Below, piece after piece: positions 7,788-53,169 of a DNA stretch of 64,000 bases (the first letter of the stretch is position 1; each line of letters starts with the position of its first letter). Source of the DNA: Escherichia coli O127:H6 str. E2348/69 (lineage in GTDB: Bacteria; Pseudomonadota; Gammaproteobacteria; Enterobacterales; Enterobacteriaceae). The position numbers were made by a program, and so were the translations under genes. The notes under the pieces are model-generated. The model did no database searches, was not told the DNA's origin, and saw only the letters and a program-made list of their open reading frames with translations. Location of the stretch: assembly GCF_000026545.1 (NCBI RefSeq), contig NC_011601.1. One strand, given 5' to 3'.

Positions 7788-7954
7788 AGATACCTCAACA
7801 TTATATTCATTATAGAAATGATCGTAGGTGGTTCAGAGGAAGATTACCACAGGAAAGCGGGATGAAATGGCGGAGGAATGAGCGTTCAATGCACATCTTA
7901 TGAGAGCGGTTGTCTTGCCGTGCCAGCAGCACGGCAAGATGATGAACAGAAAAA

Positions 7955-8668
7955 TCAGTCCAGCTGTACACCCAGGCGGCGGGCAACGGCTTCATAGGCT
8001 TCGATCAGGCCACCGAGGCTCTGTCGGAAACGGTCTTTGTCCATTTTCTCCAGCGTTTCTTTGTCCCACAGGCGGCTGCCGTCCGGGGAGAACTCATCGC
8101 CCAGAACCACTTCGCCTTTGTACAGACCAAACTCCAGCTTGAAGTCGACCAGAATCAGACCTGCATCATCGAACAGTTTTTTCAGCACGTCGTTCGCTTT
8201 GTAGGTCAGCTCTTTCATACGCGCCAGATTCTCTTTGCTCACCCAGCCAAAGGTTTCGCAGTAAGATTCGTTGACCATCGGATCGTGCATGGCGTCGTTT
8301 TTCAGGAACAGATCGAACAGTGGCGGGTTCAGCTCAATACCTTCTTCGATTCCAAGACGTTTCACCAGAGAGCCAGCAGCACGGTTACGCACGACACACT
8401 CAACCGGCACCATATCCAGCTTTTTCACCAGACATTCGGTATCGGAGAGCAGACGCTCCATTTGAGTCGGGATACCCGCTTCAGCCAGTTTGCTCATAAT
8501 GAAGTAGTTGAACTTGTTGTTCACCATACCTTTGCGATCAAACTGCTCAATGCGCGCGCCATCCCCTGCTGACGTATCATTGCGGAATTCGAGCACCAAC
8601 AGGTCCGGGTTTTCCGTGCTGTATACGGTTTTCGCTTTACCACGATACAACTCAGCTTGCTTTTGCAT
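7955..8668 (-). CDS. purC: SAICAR synthetase
   Basis: ORF 7955..8677; start placed at [18 protein letters not shown]. Confidence 0.95.
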
Positions 8669-8721
8669 CTTTATCACTCCTGGGTGTGAATTAACGTTTT
8701 AAAATCTTTTGCTGTCTGGTG

Positions 8722-8782
<61 letters not shown>

Positions 8783-8821
8783 TTTCGTGCGAATTACCGC
8801 TAAAATCGCGTTTTTCTGTCG

Positions 8822-8837
8822 ACGCACACGTTTGCGT
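8822..8837. promoter_or_regulatory. PurR box upstream of purC
   Basis: ACGCACACGTTTGCGT (reverse complement ACGCAAACGTGTGCGT) close to the PurR operator consensus, in the purC leader. Confidence 0.6.
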
Positions 8838-8880
8838 ATCATATCAGAAAAAAGGGCCGGATGACTCCAGCCCTGTATTT

Positions 8881-9915
8881 TTACTTGCTAAACGCAGCCT
8901 GGAAGACAGCTACCAGCGCGTCGTTCTGACTCTGAGTCAGAGTATGACCTTTCGGATCGATGAACTGTAGGCTGCTGCGGTTATCTAAATCGCCAACCTG
9001 CAGTTTATAGTCACCGGATGCCAGACCTGGATCGCTCGCGCCCAGTTCGTGCCATTCGCTGTCAGACAGCGGCTTATAAGTTACGGCCATGTTGCCCTGC
9101 GAACGGGTGCTGTCGGTCACTTTCATGCCCACTTTTTCCAGCGCAGCTGGCAGACGTTGCCAAACCACATTGAACGGCCCGCGTACGACCAGCATTGGTA
9201 AACCGGTGTCATCAGCTGCACTTTGTACGTCCATAGTGGTGGAGGCACGATTTTGCGCAGCGTTCGCGGCGTCAGTGGCAGATTTATCCAGACCGGCGGA
9301 AATAACGTTCATCATCTCCGTGCTGTAACGCTGCATAGAAGCCGCGTCTGCAACCGGTTTGCCCGCCTGTTCCAGGTTCAGCAGTTTAACCGTAACCGCC
9401 TGCTGATAACCCTGCGGCTTAACAGAGATTTGATAACGACCACGATACTGCTCGTCTTCGTCCAGACGGTTCCATTGTACCCAATCGGTGGTCAGTGTCT
9501 GACCAGCATCATCACGTTGGGTGATGGTGTAGTTTTTCGCCTGCAGCACGCTAACCACCTGCGGCCACAGAGTATTACCACGACCATTTTCCACCAGCAA
9601 TGAAGCGGTATCGCCCGTGAACTGGGTGCGCGCGCCAGAAACCAGTGCCAGCGGCTGGGCTGGTGGACGAATGTCCAGCGCCTTACCGACGGCACCACTA
9701 CCGTTGGTCACCGGGATTGCATAATCGCCGGAGGTCACCGGCAAGATCATTCCAGCCGGGGCATGAAGCTCCGCAAGCGGTGCCGCTTCCAGGTAGGCTT
9801 CATCACCACTGACCTGACGCTTATAGCGTGAGTCAGAACTACAGGCAGCGAGTAATAAAACAAGCGAAACACCCGCAACCTTTGCCAGGCGCGACTTTTG
9901 AACAGAGTAAGCCAT
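8881..9915 (-). CDS. bamC: Outer membrane lipoprotein BamC (NlpB)
   Basis: ORF 8881..9918; lipobox LLAAC near the N-terminus. Confidence 0.9.
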
Positions 9916-9931
9916 CAAATCTCCCTAAACT

Positions 9932-10810
9932 TTACAGCAAACCGGCATGCTTAAGCGCCGCTCTGACCGTCTCACGACCACTGTCGGTGATTGGTGTCAT
10001 TGGCAGGCGCAGCGTATCGGTCGCCACAAGACCCAGTTCCTTACATGCCCATTTCACCGGGATTGGATTGGGTTCGACAAATAGTTTGTTGTGTAATGGC
10101 ATCAGACGCTGATTAATAACGCGTGCCTCGGCAAAATGCCCTTCTGCTGCCAGTTTGCACATCTGGGCCATATCACGCGCTGCGACGTTAGCCGTAACGG
10201 AAATAACCCCATGACCGCCTAATTGCATGAAGTCCAGCGCGCTCGCATCATCGCCGCTCAGCAGAACAAAATCATCTGAAACCAGCTCTTTGATCTGGTT
10301 TACACGCGTTAAGTTCCCTGTTGCCTCTTTGATTCCGATAATATTTTTTACTTTCGCCAGACGGCCCACCGTTTCCGGGAGCAGATCGCAGCCAGTACGG
10401 GACGGCACATTATACAGAATTTGCGGCAGGTCAGTATGTTCAGCGATGGCTTTGAAATGCTGATACAAACCTTCTTGCGACGGACGATTGTAGTAAGGGG
10501 TTACCGTCAGGCAGCCGACGATACCGCTGTCATTGAAGCGCTGCGTCAGGCTAATGGCTTCCGCAGTAGCGTTAGCACCGGTCCCGGCAATCACCGGAAT
10601 GCGCCCGTCAGCCAGCTCCAGCGTCATCATCACCACATCAGCATGTTCGTCATGATTTAAGGTAGCGGACTCGCCAGTGGTGCCAACAGAAACGATCGCC
10701 GAAGTACCGCTGGCGACATGATAATCAATCAGTTTTTTCAAGCTAGCCCGACAGACATTACCTTTTTCATCCATCGGAGTAACAATCGCGACAATACTTC
10801 CCGTGAACAT
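9932..10810 (-). CDS. dapA: 4-hydroxy-tetrahydrodipicolinate synthase
   Basis: ORF 9932..10828; start placed at [13 protein letters not shown]. Confidence 0.95.
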
Positions 10811-10955
10811 GGGCCATCCTCTGTGCAAACAAGTGTCTCAATGGTACGTTTGGTATGGCATTAAAAGCAAGCAGACAGAACCGTTCTGATTGTTGTATGC
10901 ATGTTTTTTTTATGCTTTCCTTAAGAACAACTCACCCCTTGAAGGAATAACCAGT

Positions 10956-11528
10956 TTGACACTGTCATCGCAACATTATCTGGTGATCACTGCGTTGGGT
11001 GCCGATCGCCCTGGAATAGTGAACACCATCACCCGTCATGTCAGTAGTTGCGGCTGTAATATTGAAGACAGTCGCCTGGCGATGCTGGGAGAAGAGTTCA
11101 CGTTTATCATGCTGCTTTCCGGTTCATGGAATGCCATTACTCTGATTGAATCAACGTTACCGTTGAAAGGTGCCGAATTGGATCTTTTAATCGTGATGAA
11201 ACGGACAACAGCCCGTCCGCGTCCGCCCATGCCAGCATCGGTCTGGGTTCAGGTCGATGTGGCCGACTCTCCGCATTTGATTGAACGCTTCACAGCACTT
11301 TTCGACGCGCATCATATGAACATTGCGGAGCTGGTGTCGCGCACGCAACCTGCTGAAAATGAACGGGCTGCGCAGTTGCATATTCAGATAACTGCCCACA
11401 GCCCCGCATCTGCGGACGCAGCAAATATTGAGCAAGCGTTCAAAGCCCTATGTACAGAACTCAATGCACAAGGCAGTATTAACGTCGTCAATTATTCCCA
11501 ACATGATGAACAGGATGGAGTTAAGTAA
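10956..11528 (+). CDS. gcvR: Glycine cleavage system transcriptional repressor
   Basis: ORF 10890..11528; recalled GcvR begins at the TLSSQHYLVITALG region, implying an internal TTG start; ACT-domain protein. Confidence 0.8.
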   Translation: MTLSSQHYLVITALGADRPGIVNTITRHVSSCGCNIEDSRLAMLGEEFTFIMLLSGSWNAITLIESTLPLKGAELDLLIVMKRTTARPRPPMPASVWVQVDVADSPHLIERFTALFDAHHMNIAELVSRTQPAENERAAQLHIQITAHSPASADAANIEQAFKALCTELNAQGSINVVNYSQHDEQDGVK

Positions 11529-11998
11529 TGAATCCACTGAAAGCCGGTGATATCGCACCGAAATTTAGCTTGCCGGATCAAGACGGAGAACAAGTTAATT
11601 TGACCGACTTCCAGGGACAGCGTGTTCTGGTTTATTTCTACCCGAAAGCCATGACCCCCGGCTGTACCGTACAGGCCTGCGGCTTACGCGATAACATGGA
11701 TGAGTTGAAAAAAGCGGGCGTTGATGTGCTGGGTATCAGCACCGATAAACCCGAAAAACTCTCCCGTTTTGCGGAAAAAGAGCTGCTTAACTTTACGCTC
11801 CTGTCTGATGAGGACCACCAGGTGTGCGAACAATTCGGCGTCTGGGGTGAAAAGTCCTTCATGGGCAAAACCTACGATGGTATTCATCGCATCAGCTTCC
11901 TGATTGACGCTGATGGCAAAATCGAACATGTCTTTGACGATTTCAAAACCAGCAATCACCACGACGTTGTGCTGAACTGGCTGAAAGAACACGCCTGA
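11528..11998 (+). CDS. bcp: Peroxiredoxin Bcp
   Basis: 156-aa ORF with PGCT peroxidatic Cys motif; start overlaps the gcvR stop. Confidence 0.95.
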   Translation: MNPLKAGDIAPKFSLPDQDGEQVNLTDFQGQRVLVYFYPKAMTPGCTVQACGLRDNMDELKKAGVDVLGISTDKPEKLSRFAEKELLNFTLLSDEDHQVCEQFGVWGEKSFMGKTYDGIHRISFLIDADGKIEHVFDDFKTSNHHDVVLNWLKEHA

Positions 11999-12096
11999 TT
12001 ACTTTGCTCCATTCCGTGCTGGCTGCGCTTGCGGCCAGCACATCTCACATCTTCTCACTGCCCTGCAACACTCGTTTCAAATTTTTTCGCTGAAGG

Positions 12097-13158
12097 TCAG
12101 TCTTGCGCGATTTGCCCATCAGGCCAGGCGTGAATCACGGCTTTGATCAGCGTCGCCAATGGAATAGCGAAGAATACGCCCCAGAATCCCCACAAACCAC
12201 CGAAGATCACCACCGATAAAATAATCACCAGAGGATGCAGGTTAACCGCTTCGGAGAACAACACCGGTACTAACAGGTTGCCGTCCAGCGCCTGAATAAT
12301 CAGATACACCGCGAAACAGCTCCAGAATTCCGTGCCAGCACCAAACTGGAATAGCGCCACGCCAATCACCGGAATGGTCACCACAAATGCGCCAATGTAC
12401 GGAATAAGTACCGAGAAGCCGACCAGCACCGCCAGCAGCAGCGAATAGTTCAGCCCGAAGAGTAAGAACCCCAGCCAGGTGGCGATCCCTACCACGATCA
12501 TCTCCAGCACTTTGCCGCGGATATAGTTGGTGATTTGTTGATTCATCTCCTTCCACACCTGTCCTGCCAGTCCACGGTTGCGCGGCAGCACCCGGCGAAC
12601 GGCGTTCAGCATCTGCTCTTTGTCTTTCAGCAGGAAGAAGACCATCAATGGCACCAGCACCAGATAGACGGCAATGGTCAGCAAACCGACCAACGAGGCG
12701 AGGGAAATTTTCACCACCGAATCGCCCATGGTCAGCATCCGACTGCGCATATTTTCGGCCATTGCATCAATAATGCCCGCATCCATTAACGCCGGATAGC
12801 GGCGCGGCAACGTGGCGGCAAAGTCAGAAAGCTTATTGAGCATCCCCGGCATATCGCGGATTAAGTAGATGCCCTGCTGCCAGGCAATAGGCAGAACCAC
12901 GAACGCCATCAGTAGCAGGATGCCCACAAACAGGATCAGCACGATAGATGTCGCCCAAGGGCGGGAACAGCCAATAGACTGCAGGCGGACAGTCGGCCAT
13001 TCCAGTAAATAGGCCAGAACAATAGCCACCAGCAACGGAGCAAGCAGTCCACTAAAGAAAAAGATAATGCCAAATCCGGCAACTAAAATAACCAGCAAGG
13101 CAATCGCTTCCGGATCGCTAAAACGGCGGCGATACCATTGCATCAACATTTCGAGCAT
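12097..13158 (-). CDS. perM: AI-2E family permease PerM (YfgO)
   Basis: 353-aa polytopic membrane ORF; synteny. Confidence 0.9.
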   Translation of the reverse strand: MLEMLMQWYRRRFSDPEAIALLVILVAGFGIIFFFSGLLAPLLVAIVLAYLLEWPTVRLQSIGCSRPWATSIVLILFVGILLLMAFVVLPIAWQQGIYLIRDMPGMLNKLSDFAATLPRRYPALMDAGIIDAMAENMRSRMLTMGDSVVKISLASLVGLLTIAVYLVLVPLMVFFLLKDKEQMLNAVRRVLPRNRGLAGQVWKEMNQQITNYIRGKVLEMIVVGIATWLGFLLFGLNYSLLLAVLVGFSVLIPYIGAFVVTIPVIGVALFQFGAGTEFWSCFAVYLIIQALDGNLLVPVLFSEAVNLHPLVIILSVVIFGGLWGFWGVFFAIPLATLIKAVIHAWPDGQIAQD

Positions 13159-13370
13159 ACAGACCTTCCCTGAACCTCAAGAGCGGGATTGCGATCCGCA
13201 ATTGTATCGAAATGTCACAAAAAAGACTTCGCTTTTTATGACGGATTCAGGAAACTGAAAAGTCATTTGAGTGGGCTAATCTTCGCCGTTACACTCAAAG
13301 GCGGCGCGGTGGGAACGATATTTCACAGTATCGGTCAAATGACTATCTCCAGAAATACAGGATAGAGGTT

Positions 13371-14834
13371 ATGTTCAGGCAGTTGAAAAAAAACCTGGTT
13401 GCAACCCTCATTGCTGCTATGACCATTGGTCAGGTAGCCCCGGCGTTTGCCGACAGCGCAGACACCTTGCCGGATATGGGAACCTCCGCAGGAAGCACAC
13501 TTTCCATTGGTCAGGAAATGCAGATGGGCGACTATTATGTCCGCCAGTTACGCGGCAGCGCGCCGTTAATTAATGATCCGCTGTTAACGCAATACATTAA
13601 TTTGCTAGGAATGCGTCTGGTTTCGCATGCCAATTCGGTTAAGACACCGTTTCATTTCTTTCTGATCAACAACGATGAAATTAACGCCTTTGCTTTCTTT
13701 GGCGGCAACGTGGTGCTGCACTCTGCCCTGTTCCGTTATTCCGATAACGAAAGTCAACTGGCTTCAGTTATGGCGCACGAAATCTCCCACGTCACCCAAC
13801 GTCACCTGGCGCGAGCGATGGAAGATCAGCAGCGCAGCGCGCCGCTGACCTGGGTCGGCGCGTTAGGTTCTATTTTACTGGCGATGGCCAGTCCGCAGGC
13901 GGGGATGGCGGCGCTGACCGGTACACTGGCGGGAACGCGCCAGGGGATGATCAGTTTCACCCAGCAAAATGAACAGGAAGCGGACCGCATTGGTATTCAG
14001 GTGCTGCAACGCTCGGGATTCGATCCGCAGGCGATGCCGACCTTCCTCGAAAAATTACTCGATCAGGCGCGTTACTCTTCGCGCCCACCAGAAATTCTGC
14101 TCACTCACCCACTACCGGAAAGCCGTCTGGCTGATGCCCGTAACCGTGCCAATCAGATGCGCCCGATAGTGGTGCAATCGTCAGAAGATTTCTATCTGGC
14201 AAAAGTGCGCACACTGGGGATGTACAATTCAGGGCGTAACCAACTCACCAGTGATTTGCTGGATGAATGGGCGAAAGGAAACGTTCGTCAGCAACGAGCG
14301 GCGCAATATGGTCGTGCTTTACAGGCGATGGAAGCCAATAAATACGACGAGGCACGTAAAACGCTGCAACCGTTACTGGTGGCAGAACCTGGCAACGCAT
14401 GGTATCTCGATCTGGCTACCGATATTGATCTTGGGCAAAACAAAGCCAATGACGCTATCAATCGCCTGAAAAATGCCCGCGATTTGCGCACCAATCCGGT
14501 GTTGCAGCTCAACCTGGCGAACGCTTATCTGCAAGGGGGGCAACCACAGGAAGCGGCCAATATTCTGAATCGCTACACTTTTAACAATAAAGATGACAGC
14601 AACGGCTGGGATTTACTGGCACAGGCGGAAGCCGCACTAAATAACCGCGATCAGGAACTGGCTGCGCGAGCAGAAGGTTATGCGCTCGCCGGGCGACTCG
14701 ATCAGGCTATTTCCTTGTTGAGTAGCGCCAGTTCGCAGGTGAAATTAGGCAGCCTGCAACAAGCGCGTTACGATGCGCGCATCGACCAGTTGCGCCAGCT
14801 GCAGGAACGCTTTAAGCCTTATACCAAGATGTAA
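13371..14834 (+). CDS. bepA: Periplasmic M48 protease / chaperone BepA (YfgC)
   Basis: 487-aa ORF with signal peptide, HEISH zinc motif and C-terminal TPR-like region. Confidence 0.95.
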
Positions 14835-14854
14835 TTCGCATTAAAGGAAGAACA

Positions 14855-15214
14855 ATGACCAAACAGGTAAAAATCTACCATAACCCACGCTGTTCAAAGA
14901 GCCGGGAAACGCTGAACCTGCTGAAAGAAAACGGCGTGGAGCCAGAAGTGGTGCTCTACCTTGAGACACCCGCCGATGCGGCAACGCTGCGCGATTTGCT
15001 GAAAATGCTGGGGATGAATAGCGCTCGTGAATTGATGCGCCAAAAAGAGGATCTTTATAAAGAACTGAACCTGGCTGACAGTTCGCTTAGCGAAGAGGTG
15101 CTGATTCAGGCGATGGTAGAGAATCCGAAGCTAATGGAACGCCCGATTGTGGTCGCGAATGGCAAAGCGCGGATTGGTCGTCCACCGGAGCAGGTACTGG
15201 AAATCGTGGGTTAA
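14855..15214 (+). CDS. yfgD: ArsC-family reductase YfgD
   Basis: 119-aa ORF with N-terminal Cys motif (NPRCSKSR). Confidence 0.9.
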   Translation: MTKQVKIYHNPRCSKSRETLNLLKENGVEPEVVLYLETPADAATLRDLLKMLGMNSARELMRQKEDLYKELNLADSSLSEEVLIQAMVENPKLMERPIVVANGKARIGRPPEQVLEIVG

Positions 15215-15242
15215 GATGTGCTCCATCGCTAGTTGAAGCACA

Positions 15243-15340
15243 TTGCCGGATGCGACGCTTGCCGCGTCTTATCCGGCCTACGAATACTATGGATTAACTT
15301 CGCGTAGGTCGGATAAGGCGTTCGCGCCGCATCCGACAAT
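15243..15340. repeat. BIME (two inverted REP units)
   Basis: GCCGGATGCGACGC..CTTATCCGGCCTACG and the inverted copy CGTAGGTCGGATAAGGCG..GCATCCGACA. Confidence 0.6.
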
Positions 15341-15351
15341 AAACACCTTAT

Positions 15352-16098
15352 CTACAACTTCAGAATTTCTTTCACAAACGGAATGGTCAGCTTGCGTTGC
15401 GCGGTAATCGACGCACGATCCAGCTGATCCAGCGTCATAAACAACGTGCGCATTTCTCTGTCGAGCCGCTTCAGCAAGAAACGCCCCACATCTTCCGGCA
15501 GTTCAAAACCACGCAAACGCGCGCGTAACTGTAGCGCCTGCAACTTATCTTCATCAGAAAGTGGCTGCAATTTGTAGATCTGCCCCCAGTCGAGACGCGA
15601 CGCGAGATCCGGTAATCCAAGATTCAACTGCCGCGGTGGACGATCGCCGGTGATCAACAACCGTGTTTTGCCCGATTCCAGAATTCGATTGTAAAGATCG
15701 AAAATCGCCATCTCCCACAACTCATCGCCGGCAATACACTCAATGTTGTCAATACAGACCAGCGACAAATGCTCCATACCGTCGAGCACTTCCGGAACAA
15801 ACCAGGTGCGTTTATCCAGCGGGACATAGCCCACCGCATCGCCACGCTGTGACAATTCCGCGCAAGCCGCGTGCAGCAGATGGCTGCGCCCCGCGCCTTC
15901 GCGTGCCCAGAGATAGATGTAACCGCTATGTTCCTGACGCAGCACGTTTTGCAGCGCGGCCAGTAAAGAGGAGTTATCCCCCGGCCAGAAACTTGCAAAG
16001 GTTTCGTCGTCAGGAAGATAAAGTGGCAAAGAGAGCTGTGCCGGTGTGTTCAGAGATACCTCAACCAGGATTTCACAAAATCGCGAGAAGTTTACCAC
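15352..16098 (-). CDS. hda: DnaA-inactivating protein Hda
   Basis: 248-aa ORF, AAA+ Walker motifs; the true start is probably an internal non-ATG codon about 15 codons in. Confidence 0.85.
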
Positions 16099-16147
16099 AG
16101 AATCCCATGATGTTTGAACCGGGCAGCAACACTGCCCGGTCGGTACA

Positions 16148-17437
16148 TTATTTGTCTGTTATATCCGCGTCTTCTGCGTCCAGCACCACTTCTTCAGGGC
16201 GCAGCATACTAATCAGTTTGAAGATCAAACTTAAGCCGATACCGACGATGGTCGCCAGCGCCATACCTTTCAGCTCCGCCGCGCCAATGTTTACCTTCGC
16301 GCCACTGACGCCGATGATCAAAATAACGGAAGTCAGGATCAGGTTCTGTGCTTTGTTGTAATCCACTTTCGATTCGATCAACACACGAATACCGGAAGCA
16401 CCGATGACACCGTAAAGCAGCAGCGAAACGCCGCCCATCACCGGCAATGGAATCATCTGGATAGCAGCAGCCAGTTTACCGACGCAGGAAAGCAGGATAG
16501 CGAAAATCGCCGCACCGCCGATAACCCAGGTACTGTAAACACGGGTGATCGCCATCACGCCAATGTTTTCCCCGTAGGTGGTGTTTGGTGTGGAACCAAA
16601 GAAACCGGAGATCACGGTCGACAAGCCGTTAGCAAACATCGAACGGTGCAGACCTGGATCGCGCAGCAGATCTTTTTTGACGATATTAGCCGTTACCACC
16701 AGGTGCCCTACGTGTTCGGCAATAACCACTAACGCCGCTGGCAGAATAGTCAGAATGGCAAACCACTCGAAGCGCGGCGTATAGAGGGTTGGCAGCGCAA
16801 ACCAGTGAGCATTAATAATCGGCGTGGTATCGACAATTCCCATTGCGAAAGAGAGCGCGTAGCCCACCAGCACGCCAATTAAAATCGGGATAATTGCCAG
16901 GAAACCACGAAACAGCACGGAACCTAAAACCGTAACCGCCAGCGTGGTAATGGAGATGATGATGGTTTTGGAGTCTGGAGTTTGCCCTTCAGCCGGGAGT
17001 AAACCTGCCATACCGGCAGCTACGCCCGCCAGCTCCAGACCGATGACGGCAACGATTGCGCCCATTGCCGCAGGTGGAAACAGCACGTCCAGCCAGCCGG
17101 TCCCCGCTTTCTTCACGATAAAAGAAACCAGGCAGAACAGCACGCCGCACATAATAAAGCCGCCCAGCGCGACTTCATACCCCAACGGCAACAGTAACAA
17201 TACCGGTGAAATAAAGGCAAAGCTGGAACCAAGATAAGCCGGAATTTTCCCTTTACAGATGAAGAGATACAGCAGTGTTCCTATACCGTTAAATAACAGT
17301 ACAGTCGCCGGGTTAATATGAAATAAGACGGGCACCAGGACGGTTGCACCAAACATGGCGAACAAATGTTGCAAACTAAGCGGGATTGTCTGTAAAAGTG
17401 GCGGTCTTTCACTCACCCCGATAGCACGGCGCGTCAT
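16148..17437 (-). CDS. uraA: Uracil permease
   Basis: ORF 16148..17479; start placed at [15 protein letters not shown]. Confidence 0.95.
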
Positions 17438-17477
17438 AGTATTATCCTCTGTATTATGTGTTATAGGCGCTTTACTC

Positions 17478-17505
17478 AAAAAAAAGCCGACTCTTAAAGT
17501 CGGCT
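17478..17505 (-). terminator. Hairpin and U-run between upp and uraA
   Basis: AGCCGACT / AGTCGGCT stem followed on the minus strand by eight T. Confidence 0.55.
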
Positions 17506-17522
17506 TTAATTATTTTTATTCT

Positions 17523-18149
17523 TTATTTCGTACCAAAGATTTTGTCACCGGCATCGCCGAGGCCCGGAATAATGTATCCGTGCTCGTTCAGTCCCTGGTC
17601 AATCGATGCAGTATACAGTTCGACGTCCGGGTGCGCTTTTTCCAGCGCAGCGATACCTTCTGGTGCAGCTACCAGCACCAGAACTTTGATGCTGCTGCAG
17701 CCCGCTTTTTTCAGCAGGTCGATGGTCGCGATAACGGAACCACCGGTTGCCAGCATTGGGTCAACGATCAGCGCCATACGCTCATCGATGTTAGAAACCA
17801 GTTTCTGGAAGTACGGTACCGGCTCCAGCGTTTCTTCATTACGGTACATACCGACGACACTGATGCGCGCACTCGGAACGTTTTCCAGCACACCGTCCAT
17901 CATCCCAAGACCCGCACGCAGAATTGGCACAACGGTAATTTTCTTACCTTTGATCTGGTCGATTTCTACCGGGCCGTTCCAGCCTTCGATAGTGACTTTT
18001 TCCGTTTCGAGGTCGGCGGTCGCTTCGTAAGTCAGCAGGCTACCCACTTCGGAAGCGAGTTCGCGAAAGCGCTTGGTGCTGATATCTTGCTCACGCATCA
18101 GTCCCAGCTTGTGTTTGACGAGTGGGTGTTTGACTTCCACGATCTTCAT
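17523..18149 (-). CDS. upp: Uracil phosphoribosyltransferase
   Basis: ORF 17523..18176; start placed at [11 protein letters not shown]. Confidence 0.95.
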
Positions 18150-18394
18150 ACTCTTTCTCCTTTGAGGGGCAGCCACAAAAAAAATCGATGGATTATACCT
18201 CCTTTCTTCAAGGCGGCAATATTATTTTCGTTGACTTTAGTCAAAATGATAACGGTTTGAGATAAAGTTATTTTATATTCAAATGGTTATGGAAGAAGAT
18301 TATTCCATCCGAAAACGATCCTTTGCCCTGGTACAAGTATTCTTTCGCCGCGCGCCTGGGGAAAAGACGTGCAAAAAGGTTGTGTAAAGCAGTC

Positions 18395-18410
18395 TCGCAA
18401 ACGTTTGCTT
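18395..18410. promoter_or_regulatory. PurR box upstream of purMN
   Basis: TCGCAAACGTTTGCTT matches the PurR operator consensus, about 65 bp upstream of the purM start. Confidence 0.65.
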
Positions 18411-18455
18411 TCCCTGTTAGAATTGCGCCGAATTTTATTTTTCTACCGCAAGTAA

Positions 18456-19510
<1,055 letters not shown>

Positions 19511-19511
<1 letters not shown>

Positions 19512-20149
19512 TGAATATTGTGGTGCTTATTTCCGGCAACGGAAGTAATTTGCAGGCAATTATTGACGCCTGCAAAACCAACAAAATTAAAGGCACCGTA
19601 CGGGCAGTTTTCAGCAATAAGGCCGACGCGTTCGGCCTTGAACGAGCCCGCCAGGCGGGTATTGCAACGCATACGCTCATCACCAGCGCGTTTGACAGTC
19701 GTGAAGCCTATGACCGGGAGTTGATTCATGAAATCGACATGTACGCACCCGATGTGGTCGTGCTGGCTGGTTTTATGCGCATTCTCAGCCCGGCGTTTGT
19801 CTCCCACTATGCCGGGCGTTTGCTGAACATTCACCCTTCTCTGCTGCCGAAATATCCCGGATTACACACCCATCGTCAGGCGCTGGAAAATGGCGATGAG
19901 GAGCACGGTACATCGGTGCATTTCGTCACCGATGAACTGGACGGTGGCCCGGTTATTTTACAGGCGAAAGTCCCGGTATTTGCTGGTGATACGGAAGATG
20001 ACATCACCGCCCGCGTGCAAACCCAGGAACACGCTATTTATCCACTGGTGATTAGCTGGTTTGCCGATGGTCGTCTGAAAATGCACGAAAACGCCGCGTG
20101 GCTGGATGGTCAACGTCTGCCGCCGCAGGTCTACGCTGCCGACGAGTAA
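19511..20149 (+). CDS. purN: GAR transformylase
   Basis: 212-aa ORF whose ATG overlaps the purM stop. Confidence 0.95.
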
Positions 20150-53056: not shown

Positions 53057-53169
53057 TTGTGGTTAGCTCAGATAGGTTAGAGCTCCATCCATGCTTGCCA
53101 TTGCTGCATGGGCGGGGAATGGGTTCCGAAAGGATCGCCGCGCAGGTTCGAATCCTGCACCACAACCCA
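53057..53169 (+). ncRNA. tRNA-like element with non-canonical 58-nt middle region
   Basis: 7-bp acceptor stem (TTGTGGT/ACCACAA), D-arm TAGCTCAGATAGGTTAGAGC, T-arm GCAGGTTCGAATCCTGC, discriminator and encoded CCA; no standard anticodon arm. Confidence 0.5.

Follow-up and report, generated by a model that had tools for sequence, protein, structure and literature searches.

PurR operators of the purC and purMN transcription units of Escherichia coli O127:H6 E2348/69

The 64-kb window analysed here, that is, the whole stretch of DNA under study, comes from E. coli O127:H6 E2348/69 and contains the purC and purMN transcription units on opposite strands (Table 1). Next to each of them lies a 16-bp box resembling the PurR palindrome ACGCAAACGTTTGCGT. 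The purC box, which reads ACGCACACGTTTGCGT on the plus strand and ACGCAAACGTGTGCGT in the orientation of purC, differs from this palindrome at one position, and the purMN box at two; the central CG is kept in both. The interval between the boxes (8838-18394) is occupied by the unrelated genes bamC, dapA, gcvR, bcp, yfgO, bepA, arsC, hda, uraA and upp.

Table 1. Features of the purC and purMN loci of E2348/69 and of the cognate repressor gene (window positions unless an accession is given).
Feature	Position	Strand	Evidence and remarks
purC CDS (SAICAR synthetase)	7955..8668	-	gene call
rest of 163-nt purC 5' UTR	8669..8830	-	REP hairpin at 8735-8768
purC PurR operator	8822..8837	-	spans -6..+10 relative to purC TSS; match statistics, K-12 ChIP-chip motif, K-12 offset, TSS, conservation
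purC TSS (A)	8831	-	carried over from K-12 TSS 2,595,803(-); 24 reads
putative purC extended -10 TGaTATGAT	8838..8846 (TG 8846-8845, hexamer 8843-8838)	-	adjoins operator directly
bamC intrinsic terminator hairpin	8853..8874	-	weak purC -35 region lies inside hairpin
weak PurR-like box CCGGAAGCGATTGCCT, inside 5' end of yfgO	13098..13113	-	13.25 bits, chance range
purMN PurR operator TCGCAAACGTTTGCTT	18395..18410	+	spans -35..-20 relative to purM TSS; statistics, ChIP-chip motif, TSS, conservation
putative purMN extended -10 TGtTAGAAT	18415..18423	+	sequence; position relative to TSS
purM TSS (G)	18430	+	carried over from K-12 TSS 2,619,175(+); 40 reads; 44-nt leader
purM CDS, GTG start	18474-19511	+	gene call
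purN CDS	19511-20149	+	gene call
purR, intact, 341 aa	NZ_LT827011.1 1,768,483-1,769,508		E2348/69

Transcription start sites (TSSs) were taken from the supplement of a K-12 study (Kim et al., 2012; PMC3415461) and mapped to E2348/69 through a gap-free alignment; in fact, all the experimental evidence used here, PurR occupancy as well as TSSs, was obtained in K-12 and transferred to E2348/69. At purC, the box begins 169 nt before the ATG and contains the TSS, with 10 of its 16 bp being transcribed, and the probable extended -10 element ends 7 nt upstream of the mapped K-12 TSS. The purC leader exceeds that of other Enterobacteriaceae by about 100 nt. At purMN, the box begins 79 nt before the start codon of purM and is separated from the presumed -10 hexamer by a gap of 7 nt that is invariant in 14 species. 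A consensus promoter scan found no σ70 promoter at purC and no promoter for purM, which is attributable to the poor -35 hexamers of both; the promoter/terminator scan recovered the bamC terminator and the upp promoter. The promoter call at purC rests on the mapped K-12 TSS and the extended -10 element. Both boxes overlap a promoter or a TSS, and PurR sites are found in general between the -35 and -10 elements (PMC3159470) and mostly overlap the promoter according to a review (PMC6245113). The sequence-only reading had placed both boxes in expected leader or promoter positions, which holds for purMN, where the box is a promoter operator, and is refined for purC, where the box straddles the TSS instead of lying far down the 163-nt leader.

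The two boxes stand out from the rest of the window. Exactly two matches to the PurR palindrome with at most two mismatches occur in it, namely the purC and purMN boxes, against 0.03 expected, and none of 100 shuffles of the sequence produced two such matches. A position weight matrix (PWM) built from 24 other PurR motifs of Cho et al. (2011), with the purC and purMN boxes held out, gives these boxes the two highest scores in the 64-kb window, 19.8 and 18.3 bits, respectively, both of which fall among the scores of validated PurR sites. With the same matrix, the best score of random 64-kb sequences is 14.1 +/- 2.1 bits (maximum 20.7 over 200 simulations). The earlier statement that both 16-mers are close to the PurR box is borne out by these mismatch counts and scores.

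Other, weaker matches occur in the window. The sequence of the box inside yfgO is the motif under the K-12 'yfgO/yfgC' ChIP-chip peak. A site inside hda (15511-15526; three mismatches, 12.9 bits) and one inside uraA (17046-17061; 14.6 bits), both with scores in the random range, are present in K-12 and missing from the ChIP list, and were set aside as chance or cryptic matches. The guaBA PurR site GCGTAACCGATTGCAT is not found in the window because a prophage of about 40 kb between yfgI and guaA displaces guaBA past the window end. Across the whole window, Rfam at gathering thresholds gave no match to an RNA family and ARAGORN detected no tRNA, which leaves no riboswitch or leader RNA as a competing explanation.

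The sequence-only reading had pointed to the PurR sites of K-12 as the relevant comparison, and in this comparison both boxes have the same sequence and the same offset as K-12 motifs that lie under PurR ChIP-chip peaks. Both intergenic regions of E2348/69 are equal in length to those of K-12 MG1655 and align without gaps; 5 of 212 positions differ at purC and 9 of 324 at purMN, none of them within the boxes, and three of the single-nucleotide differences are found shortly past the downstream edge of the purC box (8815, 8819 and 8820, corresponding to +17, +13 and +12). The distances of the operators to start codons and TSSs and the -10 elements are likewise the same in both strains. What differs is the spacing between the purC and purMN sites, which is 9.6 kb in E2348/69 and 23.3 kb in K-12, the shorter spacing being due to the absence of the hyf-focB cluster. 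The motifs listed under PurR ChIP-chip peaks are ACGCACACGTTTGCGT at 2,595,794-809 for purC and TCGCAAACGTTTGCTT at 2,619,140-155 for purM-purN (Cho et al., 2011, Table 1; PMC3159470), both shifted by the same 1,978 bp relative to NC_000913.3. The log2 ratio of the ChIP-chip signal is 2.08 with adenine and 1.52 without it at purC, and 2.08 and 0.98, respectively, at purMN, and both units are listed among the PurR-repressed biosynthetic genes (PMC3159470).

Conservation extends well beyond these two strains. Of 5426 complete E. coli genomes, 5410 carry the purC box with its -10 element, and 5422 that of purMN, at an identity of at least 99%. In a comparison across genera, a box scoring at least 15 bits was found in the 400 bp preceding purC at 45 of 80 loci (0.023 expected), and the identical purC box is present in most Enterobacteriaceae. 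At purM, all 14 species have the box with the fixed 7-nt gap to TAGAAT, despite divergent flanks and leader lengths. The repressor itself is conserved as well: purR is present in 5424 of the 5426 E. coli genomes, and the E2348/69 protein is identical to that of K-12 at 340 of 341 residues, with no difference in residues 1-60 or in the DNA-binding domain.

Given the identity of the boxes with PurR-occupied K-12 sites, the positions of the TSSs, the conservation and the intact purR gene, both 16-mers are almost certainly operators of PurR, a member of the LacI/GalR family, that repress initiation at the purC and purMN transcription units. PurR is thus predicted from K-12 site identity to bind both boxes in E2348/69. 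With hypoxanthine or guanine as corepressor, a PurR dimer would sit on each 16-bp imperfect palindrome, covering at purMN the -35 hexamer together with most of the spacer (-35..-20), and at purC the region from just past the -10 hexamer through the TSS (-6..+10). At both promoters, bound PurR would block RNA polymerase binding or open-complex formation, and transcription initiation at purC and purMN would be lowered when purines are plentiful. The operator geometry, together with established knowledge, points to this occlusion of the polymerase.

At purC, the repressor could instead act after polymerase binding, as a block of promoter escape or as a very early roadblock. The location of the TSS within a partly transcribed box is compatible with this, and a PurR roadblock is known at purB (PMC3159470; PMC6245113). 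The boxes of E2348/69 are arranged in another way than a purB-type roadblock, since the purMN box lies entirely before +1 and the purC box spans it. In other genera the presumed purC -10 element is found on either side of the box, which also fits an action after polymerase binding, and PurR appears able to repress from several positions. However, the footprint of RNA polymerase in the open complex extends from about -55 to +20, and a repressor bound at -6..+10 overlaps it, which makes simple competition the simplest reading and a block replacing it at purC unlikely. That the main binder is a different member of the LacI/GalR family whose half-site is similar is very improbable: LacI-family operators have the central CG and a comparable palindromic arrangement in common, but the ChIP-chip signal was obtained with tagged PurR and responds to adenine, both boxes score like validated sites on a PurR-specific matrix, and repression is reportedly lost upon purR deletion in K-12, in work attributed to He et al. 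and Meng et al. in 1990. The reading of both boxes as functionless chance matches to the PurR consensus, to which only the occasional lone score near 18-20 bits in random 64-kb sequence lends colour, is effectively refuted already by the excess of close matches over expectation, their location exactly at pur gene promoters, their identity with ChIP-bound K-12 sites, and their near-invariance in over 5,400 genomes and retention across genera while flanks diverge.

As PurR operators, the two boxes can be set beside other sites of the same family. The purF operator shares the repressor and the 16-bp palindromic layout with a central CpG, although it is a different sequence variant (AAGAAAACGTTTGCGT) and has another position relative to its promoter. 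Co-crystal structures of PurR with DNA exist, e.g., PDB 1PNR, the PurR-hypoxanthine-purF operator complex, which is the structural paradigm. The intragenic operators of purB and purR also use the same repressor and box, but they lie in the coding sequence well downstream of the TSS and block elongation (He and Zalkin, 1992), whereas the purC and purMN boxes overlap the core promoter and TSS.

A different arrangement was observed at purC in other Enterobacterales. Among 65 purC loci of this order, a PurR box is located upstream of the gene in 44, right after the stop codon and before the terminator in 20, at both places in one, and at neither in none. The 3' box lies 2 nt past the stop codon, immediately ahead of the terminator. 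Yersinia, Photorhabdus, Proteus, Pectobacterium, Brenneria, Budvicia, Cedecea and others carry it, and in about one third of the sampled Enterobacterales purC has its box at the 3' end instead of at the promoter, the distribution being complementary to that of the upstream boxes. This distribution and the conservation of the 3' box are supported. An element belonging to ypfJ was rejected as the main reading, because the box is kept in the absence of ypfJ and a terminator separates the two. PurR bound to the 3' box may stall the polymerase before it reaches the purC stop codon and terminator hairpin, which would yield an unstable or non-stop purC mRNA. A possible analogue is the LacI-family site at the extreme 3' end of lacI, an arrangement absent from the E. 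coli window; a roadblock at the lacI 3' end/O3 reportedly gives rise to non-stop lacI mRNA, as attributed to Abo et al. in 2000. The complementarity of upstream and 3' boxes makes the E. coli purC operator look like a lineage-specific replacement of a putative 3'-end operator. It is conceivable, though we hold it only tentatively, that the E. coli operator is derived, that a roadblock at the 3' box was the ancestral control, and that upstream operators replaced the 3' box several times independently. A PurR site at the 3' end of purC was not found in a literature search, and the pattern may be new.

In all, the purC and purMN operators are already known, textbook biology, and the PurR operators of both units in K-12 were reportedly described by He et al. 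in 1990. As anticipated when the boxes were first read as expected biology that checks the annotation, two validated operators were located to the exact base; their recovery supports the purC and purMN gene calls and the identification of the organism, and represents a positive control and not a discovery. The comparison also yields a precise operator-promoter geometry for the EPEC strain E2348/69. In upstream-only regulon reconstructions, the PurR-purC link has an SOS of 0.18 versus 0.38 for purM, and if the 3' box is functional, it would explain this poor conservation score and would represent a natural example of control exerted from the 3' end of a gene, and of turnover of operators between its two ends.

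The two PurR sites that the sequence-only reading had placed upstream of purC and purMN are recovered, at exactly the same coordinates, by searching the window with the palindromic PurR consensus ACGCAAACGTTTGCGT: 8822-8837 reads ACGCACACGTTTGCGT, with one mismatch, and 18395-18410 reads TCGCAAACGTTTGCTT, with two. They are the sole matches with at most two mismatches in the 64 kb, where 0.03 are expected, and no shuffled sequence contained two. With a symmetrised position weight matrix (PWM) made from 24 PurR motifs of Table 1 in Cho et al. (2011), from which all sites in the window were left out, these boxes rank first and second in the window, scoring 19.8 and 18.3 bits; simulated 64-kb sequences reach a top score of 14.1 +/- 2.1 bits on average.

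Over positions 7800-19600 the window matches the E. coli O127:H6 E2348/69 chromosome with 100% identity. Aligned with those of K-12 MG1655, the bamC-purC (212 bp) and upp-purM (324 bp) intergenic regions show no gaps and five and nine substitutions, respectively, none of which falls in a box. In NC_000913.3 the K-12 boxes are found at 2,597,772 (purC) and 2,621,118 (purMN), and the published motifs at 2,595,794-809 (ACGCACACGTTTGCGT; purC) and 2,619,140-155 (TCGCAAACGTTTGCTT; purM-purN) (Cho et al., 2011; PMC3159470); the constant offset of 1,978 bp indicates that both sets of coordinates denote the same sites, the published ones being from an older version. The PurR ChIP-chip peaks over both motifs are higher with adenine, rising from 1.52 to 2.08 at purC and from 0.98 to 2.08 at purMN (PMC3159470). 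No site is displaced relative to the curated K-12 sites, which supports reading both boxes as PurR operators; the two belong to the known operators of the PurR regulon and have not changed in this EPEC strain. Probes of 30-32 bp covering box and -10 element, searched at >=99% identity in 5426 complete E. coli genomes, were found in 5410 (purC) and 5422 (purMN).

Genes flanking the two operators in the window, and purC loci of other species with a PurR box 3' of purC
Feature	Position	Strand	Remarks
purC	7955-8668	-	RefSeq annotation
bamC	8881-9915	-	RefSeq annotation
upp	17523-18149	-	RefSeq annotation
purM	18474-19511	+	GTG start; RefSeq annotation
purN	19511-20149	+	RefSeq annotation
3' box of purC, other species	about 10717-10732 in most of these loci		21 Enterobacterales species: L021, L024, L025, L029, L030, L032, L034, L037, L040, L042-L045, L047, L050, L052, L056-L058, L065, L073

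The gene layout around the operators differs from that of K-12. In K-12 a 13.8-kb hyfABCDEFGHIJR-focB cluster separates bcp from yfgO; the window lacks it and has a bcp-yfgO gap of 98 bp (11999-12096), and the PurR sites are therefore 9.6 kb apart instead of 23.3 kb. This compact arrangement is common to ~1,129 of the 5,426 E. coli genomes and to K. pneumoniae MGH78578. A prophage of roughly 40 kb lies between yfgI and guaA (~28360-64000, running to about 68.3 kb in the genome), with its integrase adjoining guaA, and displaces the guaBA PurR site beyond the window. It encodes a T7 gp14-like core protein, a Bbp16-like cement protein, portal, terminase, RecT and a PerC-family regulator. Within the prophage, RefSeq marks a 113-nt 'pseudogenic tRNA-Gly' at 53057-53169, in which neither ARAGORN nor Rfam (gathering thresholds) finds a tRNA.

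Elsewhere in the window, a third consensus match inside hda (15511-15526) has three mismatches and a chance-level score of 12.9 bits, and a PurR-like 16-mer inside uraA (17046-17061, ACGGCAACGATTGCGC, 14.6 bits) is one base off the yieG site. Both also occur in K-12, neither is in the ChIP-chip list of Cho et al. (2011), and they are probably not functional. The sequence CCGGAAGCGATTGCCT at 13098-13113 is unchanged from the motif under the K-12 'yfgO/yfgC' ChIP-chip peak (Cho et al., 2011); it sits 46-61 nt into the yfgO coding sequence rather than between yfgO and bepA, and its score of just 13.25 bits is within the chance range.

For each promoter, Kim et al. (2012; PMC3415461, supplement) list a single K-12 transcription start site (TSS): 2,595,803(-) for purC (24 reads, 5'UTR of 163 nt) and 2,619,175(+) for purM (40 reads, 5'UTR of 44 nt), which transfer to 8831 and 18430 in the window. 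Relative to these transferred starts, the purC box covers -6 to +10 and is abutted on its upstream side by an extended -10, TGaTATGAT (8846-8838), the -35 region being poor and located inside the bamC terminator hairpin (8874-8853). The purMN box covers -35 to -20, and 7 nt separate it from the TAGAAT of TGtTAGAAT (18415-18423). We infer these hexamers from the sequence plus the mapped starts. The geometry agrees with PurR sites in general, which mostly overlap the promoter (PMC3159470, PMC6245113). The upp promoter, divergent from purM (TTGCCG-16-TATAAT, 18186-18219; K-12 TSS at 18186), is >200 bp away from the purMN box, and the placing of upp in the PurR regulon by Tractor_DB via the intergenic region shared with purM (PMC2329645) is probably an artefact.

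A dimeric repressor of the LacI/GalR family, PurR binds DNA together with its corepressor, hypoxanthine or guanine (PMC3159470, PMC6245113), and structures of it exist (e.g., 1PNR). In E2348/69 purR is intact, with 340 of 341 residues identical to K-12 and an identical DNA-binding domain. A dimer bound at either operator would overlap the polymerase footprint and thus occlude the promoter, and repression of initiation by occlusion is the best-supported mechanism, although at purC PurR might, less probably, block promoter escape.

Conservation was followed across species in 80 purC loci with 10-kb flanks. In each of the 14 loci extending to purM the box reads TCGCAAACGTTTGC(C/T/G)(T/A) and the gap between box and TAGAAT is a constant 7 nt, while the sequence upstream diverges and leaders vary in length (about 35-100 nt). 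A purC box of >=15 bits within 400 bp upstream is present in 45 of the 80 (0.023 expected per locus). Across most Enterobacteriaceae the same box lies 65-68 nt before the ATG, compared with a distance of 168-169 nt in Escherichia. A REP element, which forms a strong hairpin at 8735-8768 within the 5'UTR (8669-8831), makes up the difference of ~100 nt between the Escherichia leader (163 nt) and the leaders of about 60 nt in Citrobacter, Enterobacter and others. The inserted stretch is bordered by an imperfect direct repeat (gattttagcggtaattcgcac / gattttaaaacgttaattcacac), and a second REP is found at 15304-15337. When window 8822-8846 is compared with nine purC upstream regions (L006, L009, L016, L017, L035, L041, L053, L055, L063), the same or a similar box is paired with a putative -10 whose place varies: it precedes the box in Escherichia and Citrobacter, precedes it by about 11 nt in Erwiniaceae, and follows it at a distance of a few nt in Enterobacter, Leclercia, Phytobacter and Edwardsiella. 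This suggests that the promoter has shifted around a retained operator between genera.

The remaining 35 purC loci, which lack an upstream box, are of two kinds. In those outside Enterobacterales (Gilliamella, Pseudomonas, Alteromonadales and others) a box is missing altogether, whereas the 20 from Enterobacterales carry a strong one (15.6-21.9 bits) directly 3' of the purC stop codon. The arrangement is TAA, 2 nt and box in 17 of the 20 (18 including Shimwellia), from six families; in Rahnella and Rouxiella the box lies 22-26 nt beyond the stop. In most cases a terminator hairpin comes next, 0-25 nt further on. Among 65 Enterobacterales loci, 44 have only the upstream box (including L067, which lacks 3' sequence, so that a 3' box is possible there), 20 only the downstream one, one has both and none has neither; the two positions are almost perfectly complementary. 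Shimwellia is the sole locus with both, each weak (15.1 and 15.7 bits). Information per column is 1.70 bits in the 3' box versus 1.48 in the adjacent coding sequence (0.97 at third codon positions) and 0.22-0.67 in the flanks.

Synteny (dapA-bamC-purC-(ypfJ)-tmcA) is alike in both classes. The 3' box does not belong to the downstream gene ypfJ, since it persists in loci that lack ypfJ (Pectobacterium, Brenneria, four Photorhabdus and Rouxiella), and therefore goes with purC. A literature search for a PurR box 3' of purC found no description. In an upstream-only regulon comparison the PurR-purC link appeared poorly conserved (SOS 0.18 versus 0.38 for purM), as a layout with boxes at the 3' end of purC would give. 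As a working hypothesis, the 3' box is possibly a 3'-end roadblock operator, for which purB and lacI/O3 provide analogues. While the window sites themselves are of low interest, these 3'-end purC boxes are the sole element that might merit separate follow-up.
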